From Heterodontus francisci (taxonomy: Eukaryota), in assembly GCF_036365525.1 (NCBI RefSeq), contig NW_027140442.1, positions 4,898,001 to 4,962,000 of the forward strand: DNA of 64,000 nucleotides, in the 5' to 3' direction. Below are positions 4,673 through 63,301 of the stretch, in pieces. The stretch's first letter is position 1; each line of letters starts with the position of its first letter. The notes under the pieces are model-generated. The model searched no databases. It had not been told where the DNA came from and saw only the letters and a program-made list of their open reading frames with translations. Both the position numbers and the translations under genes were made by a program.

Positions 4673-4743
4673 ATCCCTGACCTCACTACTCTCAACATCC
4701 TGTACACTGGCACCACAATTTATGTTCCCATTCCCCTGCTGAA

Positions 4744-11781: not shown

Positions 11782-12959
11782 CTGCATGAGAGAAGGGAAA
11801 AGAGAAATTACTCAACAAACATTCAACGTGTCTGAGCTCGATTTCAAAACAAAGATTGGATGGGTTAGAATAAGGTCTCCATTTAAATCTTGAACATCTC
11901 AACCATTAACTCAAATACCTCCGACCTGCCCACTTCCGGGTTTAACAGAGGAGAGACAAGCGAAGACCACCAACCGCAGCCAGGAGGCCGTTCAGCATGT
12001 TAAATACTTTACTGAGGTTTCAAGCCTCGATTTCACCTGCTTTACAGGTTTACCATTGATGGGGCTGGTTTCTCCATCAGACGTTAAAGTCTGCACACAG
12101 ACATCCGAATTGACAATCGCCTCCTGACTCCCGGGATTGGAATCCCTTCATGATCTGGAATTAATTTAAATCCCGATCAACACCTCCACTATTGGGTCAT
12201 GGATCTGATACACCAAGGATTGAACCAACCTCCACCCAGTCCGGGTACCTTAGCACCCCAGTGGCCGGGATTGGACTTTCCTGTGATTGGACGCTCCCAG
12301 TGCTCCCGGCGCACTCCTTCAGGATATGGGAAAATTCAAGGGTTGTGGATTGGACAGCTGCCGATTGAACAACTGCCCATCGGGATCATGTTTAGGGCAT
12401 ACTTGTCCTGCGGCCTGTTCTACTGTCCACGTCATGCGACTGGAAGCCAAGCTTGCCTATCAGGCTTATGTCCGAGTGGGAAACCCAAAGACACGCAATC
12501 AAACATCATAGCATATGAAAATTTGGCCTCAATCCCTCCCACCTGCCAACATATCTGCCGCTGTGAATATCCAGGTCTAAGTATTTGAGCAACACTAAAG
12601 CCTGCTTAAAATCTGATAAAAAGCAGTGATTAGGCAGCATCTGTGGTGAGAGACAGAAAGTTAACGGCCGGAATTTCACCAGGACATGGTGCCCTCGTCC
12701 ACCGGCTGGAAAACCTCCACTGAGCCCCGGAAGCCATGACTCTATCATCTGTGGCTCAGGCAAGTAATTGCCTGCAGTGGGGAGTTCTTCCCCTCGAAGA
12801 GAGGATGTCCCACTTCCAAGAGTTATGGCCAATCAGAGGGTTTCGGATGCCCATCATTGAATATATTTAAGGTTGGGACAGACAGATGTTTGGACCGTCG
12901 GTGAATCAACGGATGTAGTGAGTGGGTGGGAAAGTGGGGTTGAAGCCTAAGATCCGCAA

Positions 12960-15930
12960 TGCTGATTGAAAGGCCCAATTAGAAGTACATGGGTAAGATC
13001 TAATTACCATAGCGGCAACGTGGCTACTGGTTGACCAAGACTGAGAACTGAATATTCAAGGATATTCGACATTTAGGAAAGACAGGAAAAAAGGAAAATG
13101 AGGAGGTGTTCCACTTTTCGTAAGGGATGGGATCAGTACACCGGTAAGGGAGGATCACAGATCGGGAAAAAGCAAGATGTGGAATCCGTTTGGGTGGAGC
13201 TGAGAAACAGCAAGGGGCAGCAAACAATGGTAGGAGTTGTTTAGAGGCCACCAAACAGTAGTGGTAGTTTGGGGCATGGTATTAATCAGGAGATTACAGA
13301 AGCATGTGGCATGGTAATGCAGTAATCACGGGTGAATTCAATCTACAAAAAGACAGGGTAAACCTAATAAGCACGTATGCTGTGGAGGACGAGTGTCTGG
13401 AGTGTGTTGGGGGTGGGTTTCTCGAGTAATATATTGAGAAGCCAGTTAAAGAACAGGCAGTTTTGTATGTAGTATTAAGTAATGAGAAAAGGCAAATTTA
13501 TATTCTTGCAGTAAAGGAGTATTTAGGGATGAGTGATCATAATATGCTAGAATGTTTCGTTATGTTTGAAAGTGAGGCTGTTCAATCAGAAGCCAGGGAG
13601 TTAAATTTGAACAAAGGAAATTATGAAGCTATGAGGGGCGAATTGGCTGAGGTGGGTTGGAAAAATACAGTAAAAGGTCTGACACTACATCTGCAATGGA
13701 TAGTCTTTAAAGAAATATTACCTACTTTACAGCAACTATACATTCCTTGAAGGCACAAAACCCCGAAAAAGTAAAGGCAGTCAACTGTGGATAAAAAATG
13801 AAATTAAGGATTTGAGAACATTAAAAGAAAAGGCCTATAAAGTTGCCAGAAATAGTGGTACACCTGAGGATTGGGAGGATTTTTAGCATACAGCAAATGA
13901 GGACAAATAAACTGACAAACGAAGGGAGAATAGAACATGAAAGTAAACTAGCAAAAAAATATAAAACTGGAATGTAAAAGCTTCTACAGGTACTTAAAAA
14001 GGAAGCATTTGGAAAAGAAAAACGTGGGTCCATTACAGGCAGAGTCAGGAGAATTTATAAAGGGGAATAGAGAAATGGCAGAGCAGCTAATTGATTACTT
14101 TGTATCTGTCTTCACTGAGAAATCTACAAGCAATCTCCATGAATTAGAGATCCAATGGATTAGGAGGAATGAGGAATTGAAATTATTGGGGCTGAAGGTT
14201 GATAAGTCCATGGAACCTGATATTCTACCCCCAGCGCATTGAATGAGGTAGCGATGGAGATAGTGGATGCATTGGTGATCACCTTCCAAAAATCTGTAGA
14301 TTCTGGTGCTATTCCTGCAGACGGGAAGGTAGAAAATGTCGCTGTACTATTTAAGAATGGAGGGAGAGATAAAACTGGGGACTACATAGCTGTTATCCGT
14401 ACATCTGTCGTTGGGAAAATGCTAGAATCTATTCCAAAATATGTGACAATTGCCTCTTGGATAATAATGATCTGATTGGGCATAGTCACCATGGAATGGG
14501 AAATCACGTTTGATGAACATGATGGAGTTTTTTGAGGATGTGACTAGCAGAATTGATAAAGGGGAGTCAGTGGATGAGGTACACTTGGATTTTCAAAAGT
14601 ATTTTGTTAAAGTCCCCCACCGAAGATTGGTGAGCAAAATTAAAGCAAATGGGATAGAAGGCAATATGCAGGCATGGATTAAGGATTGGCAAACAGGCAG
14701 AAAATATTGAATAGGAATAAATGGGTCATTCTCGCAATGCCAGGCTGTGACTATTCAGTTTCCGCAGGGTTCAATGCTTGGGCCCCAGTTGTTCACAATA
14801 TATATATCAGTGATTTGGATGTGGAGAGAAAATGTAATATTTAGAAGTTTGTGGATGATGCAAAACTGGGTTGGGATGTGCAAATAAAAGCAAATTACTG
14901 CAGATGCTGGAAACCAGAAATAAGAATTAGAACAAGAAATGATGGAAATACTCAGCAGATCGGGCAGCATCTGTGGAGAGAGAAGCAGAGTTAACATCTC
15001 AAGTCCATGACCTTTCATCAGAACTGATGATTGGGTTGTGCGATGTGAGGAAGATGCAAAGCGACTTCAAGGGGATTAGGACAGACTTAATGAGTGGACA
15101 AGAATGTGGCAGATGGAATACAATGTGGAAAAATGTGAGGCCATACATTTTGGAGGTAGGAATAGATGTGCAGAGTATTTCCTAAATGGTAAGACATCAG
15201 AAAGTGTAGATGTGCAAAGGGACCTGGGTGTCCTGTCAATAAGTCGCCGAAAGCTAACATGCAGGTGCACAAGCAATTAGGAAGGCTATTGATATGTTCG
15301 CCCTTATCGCAAGAGGATTTGAGTACAGGAGAAATAAAGTCTTGCTTCAATTGTACAGAAGCTTGGTGAGATAGCACTTGGAGTACTGTGTGCAGCTTTG
15401 GTCCCCTTACTTTAGGAAGGATATTATTGCCATAGAGGGTGTGCAGTGAATGTTCACCAGACTTGTCCCCAGGATGGCGGGACTTTCGTATGAAGAAAGA
15501 TTGGGAAAACTGGGTCTGAATTCTCGAAGTTTCGAAGAATGAGAGGTGTGATCTCATTGAAACCTACAAGGTACTTTATGGGATAAACTGGGTAGATGTC
15601 GGTAAGATGTTGCCAATGATTGGGGAGTTTAGAACCAGGGGACACAATTTCAAAATAAAGGGAGGGGGGTCCACTTAGAATAGAGATGAGCAGAATTTTA
15701 TTACTCAGACGGTTGTGAATCTTTGGAATTCTCTACCCCAGAGGGCTGTAGAAGCTCGGTTATTGAGTATGTTTAAAGCAGAGATTGACAGATTTCTAAA
15801 CACACATGACATAAATCATATGAGGAGAGTGTGGGAAAAAGACATTGAAGTGGGTGATCAGCCATGATCAAATTTAATGGTGGGACAGGCTCGATGGGCT
15901 GAATGGCCTTCCCCTGTTCCTTTGATCATA
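12960..15930 (+). mobile_element. Decayed CR1 ORF2 (EN+RT) in the GPCR intron, antisense to the gene
   Basis: Fragments SDHNML, KVDKS.EPD, EFFEDVTSRIDKG and HLDFQK.F.KVPH, plus a CR1 3' end near 15860-15925. Many stops. Confidence 0.85.
14881..15026 (-). mobile_element. Short Penelope-terminus copy with degenerate hammerhead motif
   Basis: Reverse complement matches 62523-62660 and begins CAGTTCTGATGAAAGGTC (GAAA mutated to GAGA). It interrupts the CR1. Confidence 0.8.
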
Positions 15931-17295: not shown

Positions 17296-17421
17296 CTCCT
17301 CAAAAGGATGCAGCCCTGCAAACTCATACAGCCACTAGAAGTAAAGTATCCTCTCAAACCAATACAGCCCCTCAACCTAATTCTGCCCCTCAAAATAATA
17401 CAGCCGCTCACAATAATACAG
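17296..17421. repeat. 18-bp tandem repeat (~7 copies, CCCCTCAAAATAATACAG)
   Basis: Visible periodicity; the translation repeats every 6 aa. Confidence 0.75.
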
Positions 17422-18268
17422 CCGAACCCCCTCTCCCCCAGCGCCAGCAATATGGATGCAGAGTTCTGAACCCCCTTTCCCCCATTGCCAACAACATGGA
17501 TGCAGCGTTCCGAACACCCTCTCCCATACCGCCAACAACAGGGATGCAAGAGTTCTGAACTCCCTCTCCCTCACTGCCAACAACATGGATGCAGAGTTCT
17601 GACCTCCCTCTCCCCCACTGCCAACAACATGGATACAAAATTCTGAACCCACTCTTCCAGACCACCAACAACAAAGAATCAGAATTCCGAACCCCCTCTC
17701 CCATATCGCCAACAACATGGATGCAGAGTTCCGAACCCCCTCTCCCCCTCCAACAACAACATAGATGCAGAATACTGAACCCCCTCTCCCATACCGCCAA
17801 CAACATGGATGCAGAGTTCCGAACCCCTCTTTCCCACTGCCAACAACTTGGATGCAGAGTTCGAATCCCCATCTTCCCCACTGCCAACAACTTGGATGCA
17901 GAGTTCCGAAGACCTCTCCCACACCGCCAACAACATGGATGCAGAGTTCCGAACCACCTCTCCCCCAATGACAAAAACATGGATGCAGAGTTCCGAAGAC
18001 CCCTCCCACACCGCCAACAACATGGATGCAGAGTTCCGAACCCCCTCTGCCCCACTGCCAGCAACATGGATGCAGAGTTCCGAAGCCCCCTCCCACATCG
18101 CCAACAACATGGATCCAGAGTTCCGAACCCCCTCTGCCCCACTGACAAAAACATGAATGCAGAGTTCTGAACCCCCTCTCTCCCACTGCAAATAACATGA
18201 ATGCAGAGTTCTGAAACCCCTCTTCCCCACCACCAGCAATATGGATGCAGAAGTCCGAACACCCTCTG
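17422..18268. repeat. Minisatellite with 43/44-bp units (CCAACAACATGGATGCAGAGTTCCGAACCCCCTCTCCCCACTG)
   Basis: GATGCAGAG recurs at 17808, 17851, 17895, 17938, 17982, 18025 and 18069. Confidence 0.92.
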
Positions 18269-19073
18269 AGATATATATCCCAGTTTCACGATGGAAATGG
18301 AGGTCAGCACAGTGCTGCCTCACTTTTACCAGCTCCGAGGACTTTTGCCTCCGTGGTGTTGGCTTTTCGAGGATGGCAAACAGAAGGTACGTGAGTGCTG
18401 CCCGCCTCCCTGATGATCGATAAGTGCTGGTTAGATCATGGCTGAAGACATGGTAATGCATGCAGATAGCACGTTGACATACGCTAAGTCGGTCCCGTCG
18501 CAGAGCAGCGGAAGTTCCGCCACAGAGCCTCCCCGGCACTGGGAAGATCGGGCCTGGTATTCCCGATGACGGGTTGTGTGGCGTGCCACTGCTGCTCCGA
18601 TCCACTGGGCCGCACCTCCAATGGAACCCAACACCGGGAGGACAACAAGATTCAGCCCAGATTCTGACCTGTTCCATTTTACTGCTTCATTTCACAAACG
18701 ACTCCGTTCCCCTAAGTCAAGCGTTAGCTCAGTTAAGAGATGAACCCAGAATCCCATGTTCATTAGATCGATGTTTGACACAAGTAAAGCAGAAAGACAA
18801 AGTAGGAGGTCACCTTTCCCTTGAGCTGTGTGTTATTGCAGGTTTCTCTGGCTGTGTTCATCTGTGGTTCTTCATTTCTGGGTTCTTTCAAAATCTGTGT
18901 GTTTGTGCCACTTCATGCGTGAGCAGGAGACGTCAAGACATGTTTAGAAGATTTCTTTCTAAATCTTACATATCTTCGTCTACTTCCTGAACTTTGCAGA
19001 TGAACAAAAAGAAGGGAATCAGACACATCACTACATGTTTTCCATCCGCTAACCATTGAACGTTGACAGTTTT

Positions 19074-21879: not shown

Positions 21880-22695
21880 AGAGATGGTCGTTAAAGCGAC
21901 ATAAGACTTCTGACGAAATGCCGGATGGTGCTTTGTGCTCTGAGAAACATGTGTTGAACTTCAGCCATTGTGGAAGCGCTCAGTTATCAGTCCTTGCCTT
22001 GTTTCCCTTCTTCACTGCACACCATGTCCGCCCTTCATCACTGCTCTCTCTACTCCCATGTGTTTACATCGTCGGAGGATGTGTCCTACTTCCGTACCTG
22101 GTCATCCTGCATGGCCGTTCCCCTCGGAACTGTGATGTTGTACAACATGCAGCAGACTACAATGATAGACAAACTCTGTCTGCTGTGTACTATAGGGCTC
22201 CACCTGATCTATCGAGGTAGCGGAAGCACATCTTCAGCAGACCAGTCGCCTGCTTGATGGTAGCTCGGGTGGAGCCATGGCAGGATATGTAACGCTTTTC
22301 AGCTTCGTTGCAAGGGTTCTTCGCCAGAGTCAGAAGCAAGATCATTAAGGCGTATCCTTTATCCTCAAGACTTCACCCCTGAATCTGAGCGGGGAGTGAA
22401 CAGCAGTGGCACCGAGGACTAGCGCAGTATTAGTGAGTCATGGTAGTTGCCTGGAAAGCGGGCACACACTTTGAGGAGCACTACCTGTGAGTTGGACATT
22501 GATGGAGTGAAATCGCTTTCTGTTTATGAAGGGCAATAGTTATTCTGTAGGAGCCTCGATGGCAACATGCACGCAGGCAATGATACCCTGCACCTGTGGC
22601 CATACTACAATGGCCCCAAACCCAACGACCATCTCGGCCTGACTCCCAGAGTCCGTCCTGGAGTGGACATAGTCGTCGTCCCTCCTGCAGAATCA
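21880..22695 (-). pseudogene. HARBI1-like DDE transposase remnant (C-terminal part)
   Basis: Minus-strand pieces PQVQGIIACVHVAI, NRKRFHSINVQL, CARFPGNYHDSLIL, DKGYAL and HGSTRATIKQATGLLKMCFRYLDRSGGAL. Confidence 0.85.
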
Positions 22696-22699
22696 TTAA

Positions 22700-23890
22700 C
22701 CCTCCGCTTCCCGAACGATAGACAAATGCAGAGTGACACCTTCTTCATCCCGACAGGCAAATGCAGAGTGGATCCCTTCCCCGTCCCCCACCCGACAAAC
22801 AAGTGCGGAGTGGATCGCTCACCCTGCCAGAAGACAAATGATAGTGTATCCCTTCCCAGTCCTTTTGCCCACAGAAAATACAGAGTGGATCCCTCGCCTC
22901 TCCAGGAAACAAATGTAGAGTGGATCCCTCGCCCCTCCCAGAAGACAAATGCAAGGTGGAAGCTTCCCTGCCCCCTCCGACAGACACATGCAGAGTGGAT
23001 CCCTTCCCCTTCCCGACAGACGGTTGCATAGTGCATCCCTTCCTCTTCCAGACAAACAAATGCAAAGTGCACCCCTTCCCCTTCCTCTTCCCGACAGACA
23101 CATGCAGAGCGGATTCCTTCTGCTTCCTGACAGAAACCCGCGGATTGGATCCCACCCCTATCGGCCTCCCGAGAGACATATGCGGAATGGCCCCTTCCTT
23201 TCCCTGACAAACAAATGCAGAGAGGATCCCTTCCCCCTCCCCTCCTGACAGTCAAATACAAAGTGGATCTTTCCCCCCTCCCACTTCCGACTGACAGATG
23301 CAGAGTGGACCCCTTCCCCCTCCACCTCCCGACAGACACATGCAGATTGAATCCACTACCCCGCCCCCTCTGGACAGACAAATGCAGGATGGATCCTTTC
23401 TCCATTTCATTGATGACAGCAAAATGCAGAGTAGATTCGTTTCCCCTCTCTTTCTGACAGAAAAATGCAAAGTGGATCCCTAATCCCCCCTCCCCTGCCA
23501 TTCCAGACACACAAATTCCAAGTGGACCATTTCCCCCTCTCCTTGCCGACCGACAAATGCATAGTTTGCACTTTCTCCCTACCCCTCTCGACAGACAAAT
23601 GCCGGGTGGATGCTTTCCTCCTCCCCTTGCTGATCGACAAATGCAGAGTTTATCCTTTCCCCCTACCCATTCCGGACAGACAAATGCAGAGTGGAACCCT
23701 CCCCACTCCTCTTGATGAATGGCAAATGCAGAGTGGATCCTTTCCCCCGCCCGTTGCCGATAGGGCAAATGCAGAGTGGATCCCTTCCCTCTCCTCTTGC
23801 CGACAGGCAAATGCAGAGCGGATCCTTACACCCTCCCCCTCCCGGCAGACAATTGCAGAGCGGATCCCTTCCACTTCCCTGCCCGACAGA
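22700..23890. repeat. Minisatellite, ~35-40-bp unit (GACAGACAAATGCAGAGTGGATCCCTTCCCCCTCCC), left half
   Basis: About 30 visible units with a constant core and a variable C-rich linker. Confidence 0.92.
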
Positions 23891-25858
23891 AATAGAAATA
23901 TATAAAATAGCAGCAAGAGTGGGCCACTTGGCCCTTCGAGACTGCTCCACCATTCATTACAATCACAGCTGATCATGCAACTTAGTAGCCTGTCCCCGCT
24001 TCCCCCATATCCTTTGATTCCTTTCGCCCTAAGAGCTATATCGAACTCCTTCTTGAAAATATATAATGTTTTAGCCTCAACTGCCTTCTGTGGTAGTGAA
24101 TTCCACAGGTTCACCACTCTCTGGGTGAAGTAATTTCTCCTCATCTCAGTCCTGAAATATTTACCCCGTATCCTTAGACTATGACCCCTGCTTCTGGACT
24201 CCCCCACCATCTTGAATATCCTTTCTGCATCTACCCTGTCAAGTAGTATTAGCATTTTATAGGTTTCTATGAGATCTCCAATCACGCTTCTGAACTTCAG
24301 CGAATATAATCCGAACTGACGCAATGTCTCCTCATATGTCAGTCCCGCCATCCCAGGAATCGGTCTGGTAAACCTTTGCTACACTCCTTCTATGGCAAGA
24401 ACATATTTCCTCAGATAAGGAGAGCAAAACTGCACACAATACTCCAGGTGTGGTCTCACCAAGGCCCTGTATAATTGTAGCAAGACATCCCTGCTTCTGT
24501 ACTCGAACTATCTCGCTATGAAAGCGAACATACCATTTGACTTTTTTACTGCCTGTTGCACCTGCTAGCTTACCTTCAACGAACTGTGTACGGGAAAATA
24601 AAAACAAGAAATGCTGGAACCACTCAGCAGGTCTGACAGCATCTGTGGAAAGAGAAGCAGAGTTAACGTTTCGGGTCAGTGACCCTTCATTGGAACTGTG
24701 TACGAGAAAACCCCGGTCTCGTTGCATATTCCCCTCTCTTAGTTTATTGCCATTCAGATAATAATCTGCCTTCCTGTTTTTTGCTACCAAAGTGAATAAT
24801 GTCACACGTATCCACATTATACTGCATCTGCCATGCATTTGTCCACTGATGCAACTTGTCCAAATCACCCTGAAGCTTTTCTGCATCCTCCTGACAACTC
24901 TCCATCCCACCCAGTTTTATGTCATCTGCAAATTTGGAGATGTTACATTTAGTTCCATCATCTAAATCATTAATGTATATTGTTAATAGCTGTGGTCCTA
25001 GCACCTATCCCTGCCGTACACCACTAGTCACTGCCTGCCATTTGGAATAAGACCCATCTATCCCTACACTTTGTTGGCTGTCAAAAAACCAATTTTCTAT
25101 GCATTAAAATGCACTACTACCAATCCCATGTGCTTTAATGTTACATGCAAATCTCTTTTGTAGGACTTTGTTGAACGCCTTCTGAAAGTCCAAATGAACC
25201 ACAACCACTGTCTCCCCCTCATCAAGTCTACCAGTTACATCCTTTAAGAATTCCAGTAGATTTATCAAGCATGATTTCCCTTTCGTAAATCCATGCTGAC
25301 TATGTCCGATTCTACCACTGTTCTCCAAGTGCTGTGCTATCAAATCTTTGATAAAGGACTGTTGAATTTTCCCCACTACCGACGTCAGGCTGACTGGTTT
25401 ATAGTTCCCTGTTTTCTCTCTACCTTCCTTTTTTTAAATAGTGGAGTTACATTAGCTACCTCCAATCAGTAGAAACTATTCCAGAGTCTATCGAATCTCG
25501 GAGGATGACCACCAATGCATCCACAATTCCAAGGGACACTTCCTTAAGTACTCTGGCATGTTGTTTATCAGGCCCTGGGGATTTATCGGCCTTTAATCCC
25601 ATCAATTTCCCGAACACCATTTCTCTACTATTACTTATTTCCTTCCGTTCCTCCCGCTCACTGAACCCTGTTTTCCTCAAAATTTCTGGTCTGATATCTA
25701 TGTCCTCCTTTATGAAGACAGAACCAAAGTATGCATTTAGTTGGTCAGCCATTTCTTTGTTCCCGATAATACATTTCCCTGTTTCTGATTGTAAGGGACT
25801 TACATTTGTCTTCACCAACATTTTTCTCTTCTCATACCTTTAGAAACTTTTACAGTCA
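23888..25858 (-). mobile_element. 5'-truncated CR1 inserted into the minisatellite
   Basis: KADKSPGPD, HGFTKGKSCL, DFQKAF, FADD, GHSLRIRG; the 3' tail is at 23888. Confidence 0.9.
24594..24698 (-). mobile_element. Short Penelope-terminus copy with TSD
   Basis: Flanked by GAACTGTGTACG at 24581-24592 and 24693-24704; homologous to 62523-62625. Confidence 0.85.
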
Positions 25859-29475: not shown

Positions 29476-29844
29476 ATCTTCCGTTCCGGAACAAAGATTG
29501 AAGCTCATTAAAAATGGTGCCAGGGCCTGTGTGGTGGCGCTGGATGCCGTTGACGGGGATTTGGCGGCCGGCCTTCACATCATCGGGGATGGCCGCTCCG
29601 CCTTCACTATTTTAATAAGCTCCTGTGTCGGAAGGCGACTGGATTGAAAGCGCGCCACGGAGGGACACGTCACGTGATTATTAACCAGCTCCCTTGCACT
29701 CTCGCTGTGACACAAGGTGATGGTCCTTCCTTCAACTGGGTATTGTTTGAGACACTACTTCATAGGTTCTAACCCTGTGACACATATTGTTGCATTCCAA
29801 ACTCTCCCGCCACTCAATGGGAGAGCTTTGAGAAGCAGCATTTA

Positions 29845-30952
29845 CTCTCAGCATTCACATGACGCTCTCTGTCAGCATTCACACGGTGCTCACATTCCCT
29901 GTCAGTATTCACAAGGTGCCCATATTCCGTACAGCATTCACACGGTGCTCACATTCCCTGTCAGCATTCACACGGTGTCCATATTCCTGTCAGCATTCAC
30001 ACGGTGCCCACATTCCCTGCAGCATTCACACAGTGCTCACATTCCCTGTCAGTATTTACACTGTGCTCTCATCCCCTGTCAGCATTCACACGGTGCTCAT
30101 ATTCCTGTCAGCATTCACACGGTGCTCATATTCCCTGCAGCATTCACACGGTGCATACATTCCCTGTCAGCATTCAAAAGGTGCTCACATTCCCTGTCAG
30201 CATTCTCACGGTAATTACATTCCCTGTCAGCATTCACACGGTGCTCACATTCCCTGTCAGAATTCACACGGTGCTCACATTCCCTGTCAGAATTCACACG
30301 GTGCTCACATTCCCTGTCAGTATTCACACGGTGCTCACATTCCCTGTCAGAATTCACACGGTGCTCACATTCCCTGTCAGCATTCACACGGTGCTCACAT
30401 TCCCTGTCAGCATTCACACAGTGCTCACATTCCCTGTCAGTATTTACACTGTGCTCTCATTCCCTGTCAGCATTCACACGGTGCCCATATTCCCTGCAGC
30501 ATTCACACGGTGCTCATATTCCTGTCAGCATTCAAAAGGTGCTCACATTCCCTGCCAGCATTCTCACGGTAATCACATTCCCTGTCAGCATTCACACGGT
30601 GCTCACATTCCCTGTCAGAATTCACACGGTGCTCACATTCCCTGTCAGCATTCACACGGTGCTGACATTCCCTGCAGCATTCACACGGTGCTCACATTCC
30701 CTGTCGGTATTCACACAGTGCACACATTCCCTGTCAGTATTCATACGGTGCCCACATTCCCTGTCAGAATTCACACGGTGCTCATATTCCTGTCAGCATT
30801 CACACGGTGCCCATATTCCCTGCAGCATTCACACGGTGCATACATTCCCTGTCAGCATTCAAAAGGTGCTCACATTCCCTGTCAGCATTCTCACGGTAAT
30901 CACATTCCCTGTCAGCATTCACACGGTGCTCACATTCCCTGTCAGAATTCAC
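29845..30952. repeat. 30-bp minisatellite (CATTCACACGGTGCTCACATTCCCTGTCAG), ~37 copies
   Basis: Highly homogeneous tandem units. Confidence 0.97.
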
Positions 30953-30954
30953 TG

Positions 30955-31265
30955 GGAGTGTTCATTGCTGACACTAGGTATACAGTGGCGTTTCACTGTC
31001 AGGGTAATGTAGAGGGAGCTCTGCATTGTTCCTACACTGGCAGTGTTCAATGCTGAGACTGGGTATATACTGGGGGTTCATTGTCAGGGTAATGTAGAGG
31101 GAGCACTGTATTGTGCCTAGCTAGGGAGGGCTCGATGCTGACACTTGGCCTAAAGTGTGGTTTCACTGCCAGGGTAATGTAGAGGGAGCTCTGCATTGTA
31201 CCTACACGAGGAGAGGTTGATGGTGACAATAGATATCGAGATCAGCCTAATGTAGAGGCATTGCA
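30955..31265. repeat. Degenerate 85-bp tandem repeat (~3.5 copies)
   Basis: AGGGTAATGTAGAGGGAGC at 31001, 31086 and 31171. Confidence 0.8.
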
Positions 31266-36204: not shown

Positions 36205-36306
36205 ATCTGATGAAACGTCACAGACCTGAAACAATCACACTGCTTCACACTACACGATGCTTCCAGACCTGCTGAGTTTTTCTGACACTTCCTGTTCTCA
36301 TTTCAG
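36205..36306 (+). mobile_element. Short diverged Penelope-terminus copy
   Basis: CTGATGAAACGTCACAGACCTGAAAC...CCAGACCTGCTGAG, homologous to 62526-62625. Confidence 0.7.
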
Positions 36307-40720: not shown

Positions 40721-42712
40721 TTAGAATTAGAATTAGAACATGACAGCGCAGTACAGGCCCTTCGGCCCTCGATGTCGCGCCGACCTGTGAAACCATCTGA
40801 CCTACACTATTCCATTTTCATCCATATGTCTATCCAATGACCACTTAAATGCCCTTAAAGTTGGCGAATCTACTACTGCTGCAGGCAGGGCGTTCCACGC
40901 CCTTACCAATCTCTGAGTAAAGAAACTACCTCTCACATCTGTCCGATATCTATCACCCCTCAACTTGAAGCTATGTCCCCGCGTGCTTGCCATCACCATC
41001 CGAGGAAAAAGACGCTCACTATCCACCATATCTAACCCTCTGATTATCTTATATGTCTCTATTAAGTCACCTCTCCTCCTCCTTCTCTCCAACGAAAACA
41101 ACCTCAAGTCCCTCAGCCTTTCCTCATAAGAGATTCCCTCCATACCAGGCAACATCCTAGTAAATCTCCTCTGCACCCTCTACATAGCTTCCACATCCTT
41201 TCTATAATGCGGTGACCAGAACTGCACGCAATACTCCAGGTGCGGTCTCACCAGAGTTTTGTACAGCTGCAGCATGACCTCGTGGCACCGAAACTCGATC
41301 CCCCTACTAATAAAACCTAACACACCATATGCCTTCTTAACAGCCCTATTAACCTAGGTAGCAACCTTCAGGGATTTATGCACCTGGACACCAAGATCTC
41401 TCTGTTCATCTACACTACCAAGAATCTTCCAATTAGCCCAGTACTCTGCATTCCTGTTATTCCTTCCAAAGTAAATCACCTCGCACCTTTCCGCATTAAA
41501 CTCCATTTGCCATCTCTCAGCCCAGCTCTGCAGCCTATCTATGTCCCTCTGTACCCTACAACATCCTTCGGCACTATCCACAACTCCACCGACCTTAGTG
41601 TCATCTGCAAATTTACTAACCCACCCTTCTACACCCTCTTCCAGGTGATTTATAAAAATGACAAACAGCAGTGGCCCCAAAACAGATCCTTGCGGTACAC
41701 CACTAGTAACTAAACTCCAGGATGAACATTTGCCATCAACCAATTCAGCTAGCCAATTTCTGATCCAAAGCTCTAAATCACCTTCAACACCATACTTCCG
41801 TATTTTCTGCAATAGCCTACCGTGGGGAACCTTATCAAACGCCTTACTGAAATCCATATACACCACATCCACTGCTTTACCCTCATCCACCTGTTTGGTC
41901 ACCTTCTCGAAAAACTCAATAAGGTTTGTGAAGCACGACCTACCCGTCACAAAACCGTGCTGACTATCTCTAATGAACTTATTCTTTTCAAGATGATTAT
42001 AAATCCTGTCTCTTATAACCTTTTCCAACATTTTACCCACAACCGAAGTAAGGCTCACAGGTCTATAATTACCAGGGCTGTCTCTACTCCCCTTCTTGAA
42101 CAAGGGGACAACATTTGCTATCCTCCAGTCTTCCAGCACTATTCCTGTCGACAATGACGACATAAAGATCAAGGACAAAGGCTCTGCAATCTCCTCCCTA
42201 GCTTCCCAGAGAATCCTCGGATAAATCCCATCTGGCCCACGGGACTTATCTATTTTCACACTTTCCAAAATTGATAACACCTCCTCCTTGTGAACCTCAA
42301 TCCCATCTAGCCTGGTAGTCTGTATCTCAGTATTCTCCACGACAACATTTTCTTTCTCTACTGTAAATACTGACGAAAAATATTCATTTAACGCTTCCCC
42401 TATCTCCTCTGATTCCGCACACAACTTCCCACTACTGTCCTTGATTGGCCCTAATCTAACTCTAGTCATTCTTTTATTCCTGATATACCTATAGAAAGCC
42501 TTAGGCTTTTCCCTGATCCTATCCGCCAATGACTTCTTGTGTCCTCTCCTTGCTCTTCTTGCTCTCCCTTTTGATCCTTCCTGGCTAGCTTGTCGCTCTC
42601 AAGCGCCCTAACTGAGCCTTCACGTCTCATCCTAACATAAGCCTTCTTCTTCCTCTTGACAAGCGCTTCAACATCTTTAGTGAACCACGGCTCCCTCGCT
42701 CGACAACTTCCT
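40721..42712 (-). mobile_element. 5'-truncated young CR1, same subfamily as 1776-5940
   Basis: Near-identical RT translation with a 15-bp deletion near 41742, a premature stop at 41354 and a (TTCTAA)n tail. Confidence 0.95.
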
Positions 42713-49279: not shown

Positions 49280-51612
49280 TATAAAGAACAAAGAAGAACG
49301 AAAATTGCAGCACAGGAACAGCCCCTTCAAGCCTGCGCCGATCCAGATCCTCTATCTAAACATGACGCCTATTTTCTAAGGGTCTGTATCTCTTTAGATT
49401 AGATTAGATTAGAGATACAGCACTGAAACAGGCCCTTCGGCCCACCGAGTCTGTGCCGAACATCAACCACCCATTTATACTAATCCAACACTAATCCCAT
49501 ATTCCTACCAAACATCCCCACCTGTCCCCATATTTCCCTACCACCTACCTATGCGAGTGACAATTTATAATGGCCAATTTACCTATCAAACTGCAAGTCT
49601 TTTGGCTTGTGGGAGGAAACCGGAGCACCCGGAGAAAACCCACACAGACACAGGGAGAACTTGCAAACTCCACACAGGCAGTACCCGGAATCGAACCCGG
49701 GTCCCTGGAGCTGTGAGGCTGCAGTGCTAACCACTGCGCCACTGTGCCGCCCTGTTACTTCCTGCCCATTCATGTATATGTCTAGATACATCTTAAAAGA
49801 CGCTATCGTGGCCGCGTCTACCAACCTCCACTGGCAACGCGTTCCAGGCACCCACCACCCTCTGCATCAAGAACTTTCCACGCATATCCCCCCTAAACTT
49901 TTCCCCTCTCACTTTGAATTTGTGACCCCGAGTAATTGAATCCCCCACTCTGGGAAAAAGCTTCTTGCTATCCACCCTGTCAATACCTCTCATGATTTCG
50001 TACACCTCAATCAGGTCCCCCCTCAACCTCCGTTTTACTAATGAAAATAATCCTAATCTACTCAACCTCTCTTCATAGCTAGCCCCCTACACACCAGGCA
50101 AAATCCTGGTGAACCTCCTCTGCACCCTCTCCAAAGCATCCACATCCTTTTGGTAATGTGGCGACCAGAACTGCACGCAGTATTCCAAATGTGGCCGAAC
50201 CAAAGTGCGATACAACTGTAACATGACCTGCCAACTCTTGTACTCAATACCCCGTCCGATGAAGGAAAGCACGGATCCCTGTGGAACACCACTGGTCACA
50301 CGTCTCCATTTTGAGAAACTCCCTTCCACTGCTACTCTCTGTCTCCTGTTGCCCAGCCAGTTCTTTATCCATCTAGCTAGTACACATTGGACCCCATGCG
50401 CCTTCACATTCTCTATCAGCCTACCATGGGGAACCTTATCAAACGCCTTACTGAAGTCCATGTATCTGACATCTACAGCCCTTCCCTCATCAGTCAACTT
50501 TGTCACTTCCTCAAAGAATTCTGTTAAGTTGGTAAGACATGACCTTCCCTGCACAAAACCATGTTGCCTATCACTGATAAGTCCATTTTCTTCCAAATGG
50601 GAATAGATCCTATCCCTCAGTAACTTCTCCAGCAGCTTCCCTACCACTGACGTCAGGCTCACCGGTCTATAATTACCTGGATTATCCCTGCTACCCTTCT
50701 TAAACAAGGGGTCAACATTAGTAATTCTCCAGTCCTCCGGGACCTCATCCGTGTTTAAGAATGCTGCAAAGCTATCTGTTAAGGCCTCAGCTATTTCCTC
50801 TCTCGCTTCCCACAGTAACATGGGATAGATCCCATCTGGACCTGGGGACTTGTCCACCTTAATGCCTTTTAGAATAACCAACACTTCCTCCCTCCTTATG
50901 CCGACTTGACCTAGAGTAATCAAACATCTGTTCCTAACCTCAACATCCTTCATGTCCCTCGCCACGGTAAATACCGATACAAAGTACTCGTTTATAATCT
51001 CACCCATTATCTCTGACTCCACGCATAACTTTCCTCCTTTGTCCTTGAGTGGGCCAATCCTTTCTCTGGTTACCCTCTTATTCCTTCTATATGAATAAAA
51101 GGCCTTGGGATTTTCCTTAACCCTGTTTGCTAAAGATATTTCATGACCCCTTTTAGCCCTCTTAATTCCTCGTTTCAGATTGGTCCTACATTCCCGATAT
51201 TCTTTCAAAGCTTCGTCTTTCTTCAGCCACCTAGACCTCATGTAAGCTTCCTTTTTCCTCTTAGCTAGTCTCACAATTTCACCTGTCATCCATGGTTCCC
51301 TAATCTTGCCAGTTCTATCCCTCATTTTCACAGGAACATGTCTCTCCTGCACGCTAATCAACCTCTCTTTAAACGCCTCCCACATATCACATGTGGATTT
51401 ACCTTCAAACAGCTGCTCCCAATCTACATTCCCCAGCTCCTTCCGAATTTTGGAATAGTTGGCCTTCCCCCAATTTAGCACTCTTCCTTTCGGACCACTC
51501 TCGTCTTTGTCCATGAGTATTCTAAAACTTACGGAATTGTGATCACTATTCCCAAAGTAGTCCCCTACTGAAACTTCAACCACCTGGCCGGGCTCATTCC
51601 CCAACACCAGGT
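49280..51612 (-). mobile_element. CR1 ORF2 fragment with internal deletion of the RT catalytic segment
   Basis: The 506-aa ORF joins GVPQGSVL directly to SFIGRGIEY near 50270, so FADD is absent. Confidence 0.9.
49393..49752 (-). mobile_element. Full-length HE1-like SINE
   Basis: Box A TGGCGCAGTGG, perfect box B GGTTCGATTCC and a (CTAAT)n tail. Confidence 0.93.
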
Positions 51613-52579
51613 CTGTGTTCGTCTATTAGTGGACTCTGATTTTAATCTTTTCATCATTGGTGGTTGTACCTTCAGTTGCCTGGGCCCTAAACTCTGAAAT
51701 ACTCTCTCCACACTTCTCCACCTCACGTTCTGCCTTTACGACACTCCTTAAAACCTCCTTTTCTGATCCAGCTTTTTGCCATCATACCGTCACTCTCGCT
51801 ATGTGACTTATTCAAGGGGGCATAGACAGGGTGGTGGAATGGGCAGTTGTTTTTGTTGTTTCTGCCCATTCCTCCACCCTATCTATGCCCTGTTGAACTC
51901 TATTAATATCTTCCTCACCCTTCACTGCTCTTCCACGGTTCATGACTTCGGCAAATGTCAACACCGTGACCTGAAGCCGGAAGTCTGAGGCATTATTGTA
52001 TATCAGAAGCAACAGTGCGACTGGTGGAACCCTTGAGAAATGCACTGTATACCTCCCTCCAGTCTGAAAAACAGTCATTCACCACAGTGTTGACAAAAGA
52101 CCTCCTGTAATCTGTTACTCACCTCGTCAATATTTACTGGGGTCTACTTTATTATAAACCTGCTAGTACTCATGTTTGATTTAACCCTCTGATTTTAATA
52201 ACTTCTTAATCCACTCCTAATTCCAGTTGAAGTCCGTTGGTTAAAAAATTCTATTTCCCAATCCAATCATGATTGTATAATTTAAACCCTGGAATTAAAT
52301 GGGTTTCCAGGAGCCAAGATAGAAGGCGGAGGGGCCCAGACAGTGGTGATGTAGACAACATTCCTACCCAGAGATCACTTGAGGTCTCTAAGTGGAACTA
52401 CACGATCGGTTGATGGGAGCCCCACAACTTGTGCATGACGCCCAGCAAAACAAGGCAGCCCCTCTGCAGAATTGGGGGAGGCCTCCTCCGAAGGGTAATA
52501 CGTGGCCCATGGACCGGCACCGAACAGCAAAGACTTCTTCTGCAATAAACCCCTCCGCAATCAGCCAGCCCCCTCACCA

Positions 52580-53640
52580 CCTTCCAGGAGCTATCAGACT
52601 GGACCCTGATTCCCCACCGTACTTACCTGGGGTATGGGACTCCAAGGCTGCTCTGATCCTACGCCTGGTGCAGTATCAGCAGTGGCCCCTGCTCCCTGGC
52701 TGGCCGCAGCCATCCCACATAATTTATCTGAGGTCCCGGGTTCTGGCTATGATGCTGCTCCCAGGGCTGGTGCACTCTCAGCAGTTGTCCCTCCTCCGTA
52801 GCTAGCCCCAACATCCCCACCACACAGACCTGGCTCTGGTGTCTCCAGGATAGGCATTGGTCTTGTACTGAGCATTGTCCCTACCTCCCTCTATTTCCTT
52901 ATAGTTCCCAGGCGACAGTCTCACATATACCTTGGCTATGGATGTCCAGGAATGGTCCTGGTCCCAGGCCAGCTGTAGTACTGGCAGTAACAAAAACAAG
53001 AAATGCTGGAATCACTCAGCAGGTCTGGCAGCATCTGTGGAAAGAGAAGCAGAGTTCACGTTTAGGGTCAGTGACCCTTCTTCGGAACTGGCAGTACTGG
53101 CAGTCACCGCGTTCCCTGACTGATCCTGGCTATCTTATCAGCATTATCGGAAGTCCAACCTCGAGTGAAAATCCTTGTCCCTGGACTTGTGTAGTACTGT
53201 CTGTGGCACCCGGTCATTGACGAGCCCTGAAACCCCGCAACACTTACCTTTCGTGTCGGGGTCCAGCATGCTATCTAGTTCCAGGTCTGGTGTAGTACCC
53301 ATATTGGGCCCCAGACTCTGACGGGTCCCCACGAAACCCCTGAACCTATCTGGGATTTGGGACTCCAGTAATATTCCGGGTTTCAGGATTGGAGTAGTTC
53401 TGGCAGTGACACCCACTCCCTGACCAGCCCCAGAGGTCCATAAACACTTACATGGGGTCCAGGCTCTCCAGTCATGCTCCTAGTCCTCGGCCTGGTATAT
53501 TACTGGCAGTGGCCCCGACTATCTGACTGGCCCTGGTGTCCTCGCCACATTTGCCTGGGGTCTAGGTCCCCAGTGATGGTCGTGAACACAGGCCTTGTAT
53601 AGTGCTAGCAGTTCCACTGCTCCTGGTGGTGTTGCCAATA
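52580..53640. repeat. Highly degenerate ~102-bp tandem repeat (~9-10 copies)
   Basis: A GTAGTACTGGCAGTG.CCC..CTCCCTGAC-like motif near 52669, 52770, 52863, 52975, 53191, 53292, 53393, 53496 and 53598. Confidence 0.55.
52990..53090 (-). mobile_element. Short Penelope-terminus copy with TSD
   Basis: AGTACTGGCAGT at 52977-52988 and 53093-53104; near-identical to 24594-24698. Confidence 0.85.
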
Positions 53641-54126: not shown

Positions 54127-54296
54127 CAAGAGCAAAGTGCTGCAGATGCTGGAAATCTGAAATAACATCAGAAAATTCTGGAAATATTCAGCAGGTCTGG
54201 CAGCATCTGTGGAGAGAGAAACAGAGTTAATGTTTCAGGTCAGTGACCCTTCATCAGAACTGGGAGAGATGAGAGAAGGAACGGTTTTTAAACGGA
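54127..54296 (-). mobile_element. Penelope-terminus copy within the GPCR pseudo-exon
   Basis: Reverse complement contains CAGTTCTGATGAAGGGTCACTGACCTGAAACATTAACT and matches 62490-62655. Confidence 0.85.
54225..54261 (-). ncRNA. Minimal hammerhead ribozyme motif (second copy)
   Basis: AGUU-CUGAUGA-A-GGGUC(ACU)GACCU-GAAA-CAUU-AACU; the stem III palindrome is broken by a G>A change. Confidence 0.6.
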
Positions 54297-58000: not shown

Positions 58001-60219
58001 GATTAAATTCCACTGCCCGGAAACAGAAGCATTATTCTGGACTCATAAGAAATTTTCGCATCGGGTCTACTTGATGGCTTCAACATTTTCTCTGTAGGGG
58101 TGGACACTCCCTATTCTGCATCGTGAATTAACCTGTTTGTGGCACATTGAAAGGCCAGTTCGAAATTAACCAAAGGGTTAAACCAGTTTCACAACTCAAG
58201 TGCCGAAATCCAACAGGAACACGCTTAACCGTGGCACCAAAGTTGAGCTCCTGGAGAGGAAATTCACTCTCAGTGTAATAAACAGACACAAACGCACAGA
58301 GACCCAAACGATGCTGCTTCAGAGTGAAGGCCTCTGTCCAAGGAAGAGGAAGATACTGTCCAACAAAATTCCTCATCCCAAAGCTCTCTCTCTCTTTACA
58401 TCTTGTCATGCCATTTTTCGAAGTAAGAACAAATGTTCCCAGGAGGCAAGGGAAAACGAAAATTGGATGAATCAAAACAAGAGTTTCTTAAGAAGAGGTA
58501 TAGAAAGAATCCAGAGCTTCCCGTCTCAGTTACACCGACATTCTCAGAAACATCCCATGACAAACAAATGCCGCTTAGAAAACAGAGGATTGAAAGTGAT
58601 CAAGATTGAGACAGAGGGATACTGAGAACACACAACCCACACACACCAGACTGAGAGAGAGGTCCATTCCCCGGCAGAGAGGGAGGGGAGAGTGTTTGGG
58701 ATTGGGACTGGCTCCCTTCCCACCTAGAAAACCCCCAGGCCAGCAGTTTGCATCCACCCTCTGAGTGTAACACGTTACGATGTCTCGCAATCTGCTCCCT
58801 TTGTGTCCTGTACATTGACACAGGATAGAACATGTTTGACTGATTTCATCTTCTCCTTCCCAAAATCCACAAACTGGACTGGCCTGGCAGACCCATTGTG
58901 TTAGCCTGTTCCTGCCCCACTGAACTTATTTCTTCCAATCTTGACTGTATCTTTTCTCATCTGGTACAGTCTCTTCCCACCTACATCCGTAATACTTCTG
59001 GCGCCCGACCTCATTTGACAATTTCCAGTTTCCTGTTCCGAACCGCCCCCTCTTCACTATGGATGTCAAATCTCTCTACACCTCCATCCCGCACCAGGAC
59101 GGGTTGAGGGCTCTCCGCTTCTTCCTTGAACAGAGGCCCAACCAGTCCCCATCCACCACCACCCTCCTCCGCCTGGCTGAACTTGTTTCAGTGCTGTATC
59201 TCGCATCTAATCTAATCACATTGAACAACTGCTCCTTCAACTCCATGCAATTCCTTCAAGTTAAAGGTGTCGCTTTGGGTACCCGCATGGGTCCTAGTTA
59301 TGCCTGTCTTTTTGTGGGATATGTCCAACATTCCTTGTTCCCGTCCTCCTCAGTCCCCCGCCCCCAAATCTTTTTTCTGGTACACTGATGATTCTTTCGG
59401 TGCAGTTGCCTGCTCCCGCCCGAACTGGAAAACTTTATCAACTTTATTTCTAATTTCCAACCTTCTCTCACCTTCACATGGTCCATCTCCGACACTTCCC
59501 TTCCCCTCTTCGACTTCTCTATCTCCATCTCTGGGGATAGGCTGTCTACTAATATCCATGATAAGCCCACTGACTCCCACAAATACCTCGACTGCACTTC
59601 TTCACACGCTGCCTCCTTTAAGGACTCCGTTCCATTCTTACACTTTCCCCATCTCCGACGCATATTCTCTGATGATGCTACCTTCCATGACAGCGCTTTT
59701 GATATGTCTTACTTTTTCCTCATCCGAGGGTCGCCCCCCCCACCCCCGCCCCACCACTGTGGTTGACAGGGCCCTCAACCGTGTCTGGCCCATTTCCCGC
59801 ACCTCTACCATCACTCCTTCCACTCCCTCCCAGAACCGCGACAGGGTTCCCCTTGTCCTTATTTTACACCCCATCAGCCTCCATATCCAAAGGATCATCC
59901 TCCACCATTTCCGCCACCTCCAGCTTGATGCCAGCACCAAATGCATCTTCCCCTCCATTTCCATGTCAGCATTCCGAAGGGATCGTTCTCTCCGTGACAT
60001 CCTGGTCCACTCCTCCATTACCCCCAACACCTCGTCCCCTTCCCATGGCACATTCCCCTGCAATCGCAGGAGGTGTAATAACTGCCGATTTACCTCTTCT
60101 CTCATCACTATTCCTGGCCCCAAACACCACTTTCAGGTGAAGCAATGAATTACTTGTACTTCTTTCAATTTAGTAGATGGGGTTCGCTGCTCACAATGTG
60201 GTGTCCTCTACATTGGGAA

Positions 60220-61942
60220 GATCAATGGCTGAAGCATTAAGATAAGGCTGAAGCATTTGCAACAATCTTCAGCCAGAAGTGCCGAGTTGATGATGCATCT
60301 AGGCCTCCTCCTGAAGTCCCCAGCATCACAGATGCCAGAGTGCAGCCAATTCGATTCACTCCACGTGATATCAAGAAATGACTGAAGGCATTGGATACTG
60401 CAAAAGCTATGGGCCCCTGACAATATTCCGGCAATAGTACCGAAGACCTGTACTCCAGAACTTGCCGCGCCCCCAGACAAGCTCTTCCAGTACAGCTACA
60501 ACACTGGCATCTACCCTGCAATGTGGAAAATTGCCCAGGTATGCCCTGTACACAAAAAAAGCAGGACATGTCTATTCGGCCAATTACCACCGCATCAGCC
60601 GACTCTCAATCATCAGTAAAATGATGGAAGGTGTCATCAGCAGTGCCATCAAGCGGCACTTGCTTAGCAATAACCTGCTCAGTGACGCTCAGTTTTGGTT
60701 CCGCCAGGGCCACTCAGCTGCTGACCTCATTACAGCCCGGGCTCAAACATGGACAAAAGAGCTGAACTCAAGAGGTTAGATTAGAGTGACTGCCGTTGAC
60801 ATCAAGGCAGCATTTGACCGAGTATGGCATCAAGGAGCCCTAGCAAAACTGAGGACAATGGGTTTCAGGAGGATAACCGTCCGCTGGCTGGAGTCATACC
60901 TAGCACAAAGGAAGATGGTTGTGGTTGTTGGAGGTCAATCATCTGAGCTCCACGACATCACTGCAGGAGTTCCTCAGGGTAGTGTCCTCGGCCCGACCAT
61001 CTTCAGCTGCTTCATCAATTACCTTCCTTCAATCATAAGGTCAGAAGTGGGGATGTTCGCTTATGATTGCACAATGTTCAGCACCATTCGTGACTCCTCA
61101 GATACTGAATCAGTCCGTGTAGAAATGCAGCAAGACCTGGACAATATCCAGGCTTGGGCTATTAAGTTGCAAGTAACATTCGCGCCACACAAGTGCCAGG
61201 CAATGACCATCTCCAACAAGAGAGAATCTAACCATCTCCCCTTGACATTCAACAGCATTACCATCGCTGAATCCCCCCCCTATCAACATCCTAGGGGCTA
61301 CCATTGACCAGAAACTGAACTGGTGTAGCCATATAAATACCGTGGCTACAACAGCAGTTTAGAGGCCAGGAATCCCGAGGCGAGTAACTCACCTCCTGAC
61401 TCGCCAAAGCCTGTCCACCATCTACAAAGCACAAGTCAGGAGTGTGAAGAAATACTCGACACTTGCGTTGATGGGTGCAGCTCCAACAACCCAATCGAAG
61501 CTCGACACCATCCAGGACAAAGCAGCCCGCTTGATTGGCACACCATCTCCAAACATTCACTCCCTCCACCACCGATGCACAGTGGCAGCAGTGTGTACCA
61601 TCCACAAGATGCACTGCAGCAATGCACCAAGGCTCCTTGGACAGCACCTTCCAAACCCGCGACCTCTACCAGCTAGAAAGGACAAGGGCAGCAAATACAT
61701 GGTAACATCCCCACCTGTAAGTTCCCCTCCAAGACACACACAATTCTGACTTGGAACTTCAATATCGCTGGGTCAAAAGCCAGGTACTCCTTTCGTAACA
61801 AAACTGTGGGTCTACCTACACCAAATGGACTGCAGCGGTTCAAGAAGGCAGCTCACCACCACGTTCTCAAGGGCAATTAGGGATGGGCAATAAATGCTGG
61901 CATAACCAGTGACGCCCACATCCCATGAATGAATTTTTAAAA
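60220..61942 (+). mobile_element. LINE family B (CR1/L2 group RT), 5'-truncated, inserted in the GIY-YIG domain
   Basis: DIKAAFDRVWH, GVPQGSVLGP, FAYDC, plus the 3' UTR ending ATGAATGAATTTTTAAAAA. Confidence 0.92.
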
Positions 61943-62522
61943 ACGCAAACTAGATGACCGCTTTGCGGAACACCTCCGCTCAGTCCGCAAGATGGACACT
62001 GAGCTTCTAGTTGCTTGCCATTTCAACACTCTCCCCGTGCTCTCATGAGCGCATCTCTGTCCTGGGATTTCTGCAGTGTTCCAGTGAACATCAACGCAAG
62101 CTCGAGGAACAGCATCTCATTTATTGATTAAGCACACTACAGCCTGCCGGACTGAACATTGAGTTGAACAATTTCAGAAGATGACGGGCTCCATTTTACT
62201 TTTATTTTCAGTTACATTTTCTTTTTCCTTTTTAAAATATTTTTTCGTGTTTATTTTATTTCATCCTAGTTTGTTCATTTTGCTTGCCCACTGTTTTTTT
62301 TTCATGTTTGCACTTGCGGCTGTTCAGTTTTCAGTCTGTCAACACCCGATCTGTACTAATGCTTTGTCTTTCAACACACCATTAACATATTGTTTGCCTT
62401 TGCTCACCGACCTTCTGGTCAGCTTTTCTGTGACCTTGTCCTATTTACACCTTCCCCTTTGTTATCTCTTGTCCACCCCCATTTTACTTGCTTATAACCT
62501 TTTACATTTCTAATATTTGCTC

Positions 62523-62557
62523 GTTCTGAAGAAGGGTCACTGACCTGAAACGTTAAC
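62523..62557 (+). ncRNA. Minimal type I hammerhead ribozyme motif in the Penelope terminus
   Basis: GUU-[CUGAAGA]-A-GGGUC(ACU)GACCU-[GAAA]-CG-UU-AAC: core boxes, a stem II hairpin, palindromic AACGUU stem III and a GUU/AAC stem I. Confidence 0.75.
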
Positions 62558-63301
62558 TCTGCTTCTTTCTCCACAGATGCTGCCAGACCTGCTGAGTATT
62601 TCCAGCATTTCTTGTTGTTATTTCAGATTTCCAGCATCCACAGTATTTTGCTTTTATTATTATGATCAGGATTTATTGATTTGATATCTTTAACTCCAAG
62701 TCATTGTCGGAAATATTACTGCAATTTTCAAATATCTGATTCCATTCACAGACCCCACACAGGGACTGGGAAATGAACCAGTGACACTGGTCAATTCCAC
62801 ATACAGCTCATACTTAATATTAAACGCAGTATGTTCCATCTGTCGTTCCCTTTCTCCATGTCTGCACTTCTGCATTGGATCGTCTTGCGGTTTCAGAAAC
62901 CTGATGTCAGGACCACATGGGGGGAACCTGAGACTGCTCTTCCCAGCAATGAGATTGGTGGAACAACATTCCCGGTACATAGCTTCCTAAATTTCCGCTC
63001 TGATGAAGGGCACAGAGCATGTTCCCGCTGCTGTTAGATCAGAAGGCCAGCAGCTCTGGAGCCTCAAGAGCGTCCACTTCTCCGAGTGGTCAGCGGATCG
63101 TGAGGCCTGAGAATATTAAGCATCACTTTTAGTCTCCAAATCCCTGTAATTCTCTCTTACACTGTCTGTGTGACCGACCCACACACAATCTGTCTGTTTG
63201 TTTCTCCCAATCTCTGTCACGATCTCTCTGTCCCTATCTCTCAGTATTCGACTCCCCTCTCACTCTATTACTGTCTCTTTCCCTCTGACTCTCATTTTTA
63301 T

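Follow-up and report, generated by a model that had tools for sequence, protein, structure and literature searches.

A predicted minimal hammerhead ribozyme in the terminal repeat of a broken Penelope-like retroelement, and a prevalent core variant in its family

A minimal hammerhead motif

On the grounds of its anatomy, its position and its agreement with published examples, we consider it probable that the motif is a hammerhead of the minimal type I class (min-HHR), carried by the terminal repeat of a Neptune-like Penelope retroelement that lies broken in the window (the whole stretch of 64,000 nucleotides of DNA analysed here) and probably belongs to a shark or ray. An intact tandem of such repeats would likely cut weakly after U62554 with the aid of a second copy or of the element's protein; the focal copy is itself likely silent. 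The motif is in itself ordinary, as nearly all canonical Penelope-like elements (PLEs) have one; the fresh point is that nearly half of the family copies, counted by reads, have an altered core base that is reported to reduce cutting. PLE hammerheads may serve in the processing of tandem RNA, be a dispensable passenger or act as a protein-assisted switch, and the present family offers test material in the form of two abundant core-base versions in one genome, with shares that differ by species label (45-55% versus 1.5%), and of copy ends from which one can read whether the template RNA had been cut. The parts of the motif, all read from the sequence, are:

62523-62525, plus strand, stem I 5' strand GTT
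62526-62532, plus strand, core box CTGAAGA
62533, plus strand, extra A after CUGANGA
62534-62538, plus strand, stem II 5' strand GGGTC
62539-62541, plus strand, stem II loop ACT, 3 nt
62542-62546, plus strand, stem II 3' strand GACCT
62547-62550, plus strand, core box GAAA
62551-62553 and 62554, plus strand, CGT, then T
62555-62557, plus strand, stem I 3' strand AAC
62523..62557, plus strand, minimal type I hammerhead with predicted cut after 62554 (descriptor scan, folding, published consensus in the PMC4209133 supplement)

The core boxes, the GGGTC/GACCT hairpin and the GTT/AAC stem I are thus all present where the sequence-only reading had placed them, and together they give a 3-bp stem I, a canonical CUGAAGA, a 5-bp stem II closed by a G-U rather than a G-C pair at 10.1-11.1, and a palindromic ACGU. 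We take the hammerhead numbering to run from G12 to A15.1 over GAAA and on through C15.2, G16.2, U16.1 and U17, in agreement with the published alignment. The outer letters of the AACGTT palindrome (62549-62554) are then core A14 and cleavage nucleotide 17, so that only ACGU (62550-62553) can be the helix III of a dimer; the proposal of AACGUU as a six-nucleotide stem III is correct as to the sequence and overstated as to the helix. Another palindrome, GUUAAC (62552-62557), lies across the cut site. The computed duplex energies are -1.7 kcal/mol for ACGU, -3.5 kcal/mol for AACGUU and -3.4 kcal/mol for GUUAAC; in an AACGUU duplex core A14 would be bound to the cleavage base, in a GUUAAC duplex the cut site would be bound to the strand of stem I itself, and we infer that both are inactive competitors of the ACGU helix III. 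The predicted cut after U62554 is in the sole register that keeps stem I, since in the alternative register (loop CGU, cut after A62555) stem I breaks after one pair.

In its sequence features the motif agrees with that of Cervera and de la Pena (2014), whose examples include fish Neptune elements (PMC4209133). The published consensus has an extra H after A9, CGUU at 15.2-17 and a 3-bp stem I (PMC4209133 supplement); the extra A that had been singled out in the earlier reading is accordingly already part of the published CUGANGAH, besides being present in 6 of 6 window copies, and the GUU site and short stem I likewise recur in the published alignment. Closing pairs of the G-U or A-U type are found in fish, coelacanth and frog rows of that alignment, in which G10.1-C11.1 is the consensus at more than 80% (PMC4209133).

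The motif is short, its predicted fold is no more stable than that of shuffled sequences (z +0.96), and the Rfam models give it no score: there are 0 matches at gathering score anywhere in the window, and the 4 weak matches at E<=10 over 61900-63200 include no hammerhead family. These points could favor a chance match in repetitive DNA. Against this, the descriptor scan that had been suggested earlier returned one match in the 64-kb window, the focal site, and only one across 300 random 64-kb sequences of the window's dinucleotide make-up with both strands scanned, the descriptor being modelled on the published consensus, but composed after the motif had been seen. Moreover, the motif sits where PLE hammerheads are known to sit and agrees letter class by letter class with the published rows. 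In our judgment its position and consensus agreement refute the chance-match reading, to which we assign a negligible probability, and we take 62523-62557 to be, by its sequence features, a real min-HHR of metazoan Penelope-like elements, of a kind already published. An Rfam match to mir-7094 (E=0.051; 23 bits versus a gathering score of 90 bits) was set aside as a reflection of the competing hairpin. A pattern scan of viral contigs for the motif recovered 0 loci, and one of metagenome contigs recovered 30 loci, which we treated as chance, with 0 of 30 being family-like by blastn.

The host element

Upstream of the motif lie the reverse transcriptase (RT) motifs, linker and GIY-YIG domain of a Penelope-like element, as had been proposed for the host:

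58853..60220, plus strand, decayed PLE ORF from RT to the first half of the GIY-YIG endonuclease, 5'-truncated, with frameshifts and stops (protein comparison)
60059..60085, plus strand, CX4CxxC linker, a Zn-finger-like motif of Neptune/Nematis type (sequence; defining feature from PMC8557442)
60173..60220, plus strand, GIY-YIG core with two internal cysteines (sequence)
60221..61943, plus strand, inserted 5'-truncated LINE fragment splitting the endonuclease (RVT_1 match; other copies in the window)
61944..62184, plus strand, endonuclease C-terminal half, ending with the stop codon (contains the catalytic E and N region as well as both CCHH histidines)
62185..62522, plus strand, 3' UTR / pseudo-LTR upstream of the hammerhead (read depth runs on through the region)

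On an 893-aa relative the host ORF places residue 378 at 58853, 818 at 60220 and 821 at 61944; in the alignment of P0107, residues 665-818 end at 60220 and 821-849 resume at 61944. As the endonuclease alignment halts at 60220 and restarts at 61944, we conclude that the 1.7-kb LINE fragment split the nuclease, the CCHH motif of which is spread over 60173-60220 and 61944-62036. The insert matches RVT_1 (E 5e-22), has six further related stretches in the window and is presumably of the CR1/L2 class. The ORF stops at 62184 and the hammerhead begins 339 nt after the stop. A target duplication was sought for the focal element and none was found (best score 7 versus a null mean of 5.9).

A protein search with the RT piece gave 296 matches among 576 candidates, of which the best 120 were used; the named top relatives among the matches listed are from Mobula, Chiloscyllium, Amblyraja, Rhincodon, Hypanus and Leucoraja, with 59-71% identity and E-values down to 4e-38, which points to a cartilaginous fish as the probable host. 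Three of the RT matches (P0009, P0017, P0047) are ray and skate host-gene isoforms, which suggests exonised PLE pieces or annotation artefacts. The CX2-5CxxC linker marks Neptune or Nematis (PMC8557442), and a recent preprint found only Neptune and Poseidon in vertebrates (bioRxiv 2026.07.22.740005). The host element is hence probably a Neptune-like EN+ PLE, with the clade assigned from linker motif and host range rather than from a tree.

Copies, ends and state of the focal copy

Five further copies of the family in the window comprise the last 100-135 bp of the element:

54128..54260, minus strand, solo stub, canonical core, G-U at 10.1-11.1, helix III broken
52989..53091, minus strand, solo stub, U4C core, G-C at 10.1-11.1, G12 lost, 12-15-bp target duplication
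24596..24696, minus strand, solo stub, C4, G-C at 10.1-11.1, G5 lost, 17-bp target duplication (16/17) overlapping stem I
14883..15024, minus strand, solo stub, A-U at 10.1-11.1, A13 lost
36206..36306, plus strand, solo stub, most decayed, nearest same-strand copy to the focal one, 26 kb off

Every one of them lacks a base of the core or of helix III. In all five, similarity to the element ceases no more than about 7 nt upstream of C3, and no PLE coding sequence was detected beside them at a convincing score. Target duplications are clear in 2 of the 5 (scores 14.5 and 12.5; at most 0.15% of 1985 random pairs reach 12). All six window copies are dispersed singles, with none in tandem. Imposed on these six, the hammerhead structure is 86.7% paired versus at most 44% when slid, with 96.7% of the stem II cells paired; the 10.1-11.1 pair is G-C in two copies, G-U in two and A-U in two, and therefore paired in 6/6. 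Stem I has 3 bp in the focal copy and 4 bp in 4/6 copies and about 94% of reads. Two checks had been suggested at this point, of which covariation yielded one covarying pair (10.1-11.1) with a score reached by 177 of 500 shuffles of only 6 copies, and conservation yielded 1/11 core versus 5/14 free positions variable (p=0.14, not significant), in a comparison where mismatches near the stretch start were clipped and reads less than 80% alike were left out, a filter that favors conservation everywhere.

Only the focal copy of the six retains an intact core, here with the canonical U4, together with helix III and stem I, and this could be read as an exapted ribozyme cutting a host transcript that runs through it. 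We find this most improbable: in an extremely abundant family an intact copy is expected, published monomers are inactive, there is no partner copy, no sign of a host gene is seen around the motif, and the fold in context is unfavorable. Predicted folding gives helix II a probability of 0.85-0.91 in 43 nt and stem I one of 0.36-0.44 in the same 43-nt piece but no more than 0.01 in the longer pieces of 101 and 157 nt, stem I being predicted lost once the downstream pyrimidine tract is included. Position 62522 differs from 94% of reads (11528/12207), with loss of the fourth stem I pair. As the copy lacks an upstream promoter repeat and a tandem partner, has lost this pair and has a stem I predicted to be unfolded in context, it is probably silent.

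Parts of the element are contained in 20 of 24 sequencing runs (five species labels plus metagenomes), 7 of which were analysed; the only runs with an RNA label consist of contigs, and their RNA origin is a guess. Raw DNA reads from the motif region number 66287 of 11989820 in X21 (a capture library) and 14420 of 13967370 in X22 (RAD); the family is very abundant, and capture and RAD libraries give no copy number. The main 5' loose end of the copies is not the cut site but 62523, within the motif's first bases, with 5243 of 66287 X21 reads and 9822 of 24123 in a second read alignment, counts which take in, besides stubs, long copies that do not end there but diverge from the focal copy at 62520-62522. 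Thirteen rows of opposite-strand joints at 62523 correspond to inverted truncated partners that start at the motif's first base. The 3' loose ends fall behind 62607-62622 and 62655-62658, and the latter, at 101-104 nt past 62554, match the distance of about 100 nt to the element end estimated from sequence.

62607..62658, plus strand, two alternative 3' ends (~62620-62622, 62655-62658), an optional 30-40-bp PLE tail (loose read ends, window copies; PMC11167929, PMC8557442)

In Anolis the PLE tail reflects two internal starts of reverse transcription (PMC11167929).

A U4C core variant and proposed subfamilies

We then scanned variation over 62516-62572 in the X21 reads, where 10 places vary in at least 3% of reads. 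Foremost among these are U4 to C at 62527, which turns the core into CCGA (7493/16725 reads, 44.8%), and 11.1 to C at 62546 (10698/24090, 44.4%). N7 varies in 41.4% and G10.1 changes to A in 22.1%, the loop positions vary in 4.5% and 13.3%, the CpG at 15.2-16.2 is changed in 11.0% and 11.2%, and 62559 and 62562 vary in 3.6% and 9.0%; the remaining 10 core positions vary in less than 3%. The shares of C4 and C11.1 agree in all five non-RAD runs, X21, X15, X9, X1 and X17 (44.8/44.4, 55.2/54.8, 1.5/3.2, 30.6/28.0 and 41.8/41.8; X1 and X17 are one sample), so that U4C accounts for 31-55% of reads or depth in four of them and 1.5% under another species label; in the run with 1.5% C4, A10.1 makes up 81% of depth. 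The RAD runs X22 and X23 are without this agreement (59.5 versus 21.7; 68.9 versus 35.4), but their coverage is limited to a few unevenly sampled loci, and we place no reliance on them. In the window, 2/2 copies with C4 have C11.1 and 4/4 with U4 have U11.1. From the shares and the window copies we infer that C4 and G-C characterise one subfamily and that in others U4 goes with G-U or A-U. Plain CpG decay as the source of U11.1 in the copies is disfavored, as G12 across the same CpG is changed in less than 3% of X21 reads versus 56% T at 11.1.

U4C considerably lowers hammerhead activity in vitro, yet supports viroid infectivity (PMC3088659). None of the published PLE min-HHR rows begins CCGA, versus about 45% of X21 reads, and the variant reported there is U3-A8 (PMC4209133, in the alignment part and supplement file 2). 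In the literature covered we met neither U4C in a PLE nor a PLE hammerhead from a shark. As a tentative extension, which we hold to be rather doubtful, about half of the Penelope family in some sharks or rays might stem from a CCGA (U4C) master linked to G10.1-C11.1 and invisible to CUGANGA searches, with tandem units that start at the cut site coming from the canonical-core subfamily, such that a weakened ribozyme would have accompanied a large expansion. If true, this would be a natural experiment on the effect of cleavage on Penelope transposition, be it favorable, restraining or nil.

Possible traces of cutting, a proposed mechanism and its main rival

The best-supported joint in X21 leads from the short 3' end (62607-62622) back to 62553-62555, head-to-tail, with a unit of about 68 nt. 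It is represented by 699 + 364 = 1063 X21 reads, about 2.6% of local depth, in three letter variants, as well as by 5 X1 contigs, and none was recovered in X22 or X17; 259 further joints exist beyond those listed. Two letters at the joint fit both sides, and the downstream unit may therefore begin at 62555, the first base past the predicted cut. The letters after the joint resemble the canonical-core 54-kb copy and not the C4 copies (loose-end consensus, agreement 0.62). The joint may represent one old event that was amplified, or a captured locus.

In light of these ends and joints, we posit that in an active tandem transcription would begin at stem I of the upstream repeat or shortly before it, and that the element's protein would start reverse transcription about 65 or about 100 nt past the cut site, giving the two 3' ends. 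Synthesis of most cDNAs would pass the motif, left uncut, and end at its first bases, which would account for the stubs of 100-135 bp and their target duplications. A smaller share of the RNAs would be cut at 62554, either through a helix III formed as ACGU:ACGU by two copies or with help from the protein, and would yield units beginning at 62555. The focal copy would then be the 3' repeat of a longer cDNA, whose 5' part was lost and into which the LINE was inserted later.

As to activity, published min-HHRs show none as monomers and little as dimers (PMC4209133), 8/9 Xenopus min-HHR dimers did not cleave and 1/9 was active (bioRxiv 2026.07.22.740005), and the Anolis hammerhead needed the element's protein in order to cut, while in vitro insertion did not require the hammerhead (PMC11167929). 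The motif might be a hammerhead by descent for which cutting is no longer needed, kept via its overlap with the transcript start, a 3' splice signal and a protein-binding region; we deem this somewhat unlikely. Consistent with it are the prevalence of U4C in the four non-RAD runs, the fact that copies mostly begin upstream of the cut, the Anolis catalytic mutants, which left in vitro insertion unaffected (PMC11167929), the Naiads, which thrive without the motif (PMC8557442), and a splice-like signal at 62553-62576:

62553..62579, plus strand, putative 3' splice-site-like signal with branch-like TTAAC, 16-nt pyrimidine tract, CAG, then ATG, overlapping the cut site (sequence)

The frame from ATG 62577, taken as an ORF start, has no match among the best 120 of 296 relatives, few of which are full length. 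Arguing for cutting, on the other hand, are the low variation of the other 10 core positions in X21, with G12 changed so rarely though 44% of reads place it in a CpG and each base of the CpG at 15.2-16.2 is changed in 11%, the pairing of 10.1-11.1 in all six copies, the existence of cut-site joints and the sufficiency of U4C activity for viroid infectivity (PMC3088659). We favor weak, assisted cutting in an intact tandem. Two further features of the terminal repeat are a second 3' splice-site-like tract at 62607-62626 and a long predicted hairpin at 62576-62638, between the post-splice-like sequence and the tail, which is a candidate RT binding or start site (z -1.0).

Comparison with related systems

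With published PLE min-HHRs (PMC4209133) the focal motif has in common the type I architecture, CUGANGA plus an extra base, a 5-bp stem II, GAAA, a 2-nt palindromic center for helix III, the GUU site, a 3-4-bp stem I, and a site near the element's 3' end with thousands of solo copies; the alignment part and supplement file 2 of that work contain no cartilaginous fish. The Neptune clade of EN+ PLEs (Craig et al. 2021, PMC8557442) has in common with the host the RT, the CX2-5CxxC linker, GIY-YIG with CCHH, an optional tail and inverted truncated neighbors, comparable to the opposite-strand joints described above; the linker is common to Nematis too, and the focal copy is a pseudogene. Poseidon PAc of Anolis (Frangieh et al. 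2024, PMC11167929) likewise has a pLTR hammerhead and 3' ends about 65 and about 100 nt past the cut, but belongs to another clade, has no linker and carries its start codon in stem II, whereas the candidate ATG of the focal element is 23 nt past the cut, behind the splice-like site. Non-LTR retrozymes (bioRxiv 10.64898/2026.07.22.740005), which are reported from one chondrichthyan, also derive from the PLE pLTR and have type I hammerheads, but require at least two consecutive intact tandem units, in contrast to the scattered copies of the present family. Finally, the U4C viroid hammerhead (via Perreault et al. 2011, PMC3088659) has the same core change as the abundant subfamily, but is full-length with tertiary contacts, and the focal copy itself is of the canonical type.

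Other features of the window

On the minus strand, 62950-63021 weakly resembles a full-length PLE relative over its residues 138-161 (E 0.02), is adjoined by a degenerate CUGAUGA box near 63003, and is possibly another old PLE fragment. A single-exon rhodopsin-family GPCR open frame occupies 10871-11905 on the minus strand (7tm_1, E 1e-21). LINE RT frames lie on the minus strand at 1859-5707, 41354-42598 and 50087-51622, the first containing a GDSL esterase domain at 4769-5707, minus strand; GDSL esterase domains occur in some LINE ORF1 proteins. Minisatellite-like tandem repeats at 17377-18686, 22605-23825 and 29711-31056 give long spurious frames, and a DUF6011 match in such repeats is probably an artefact.
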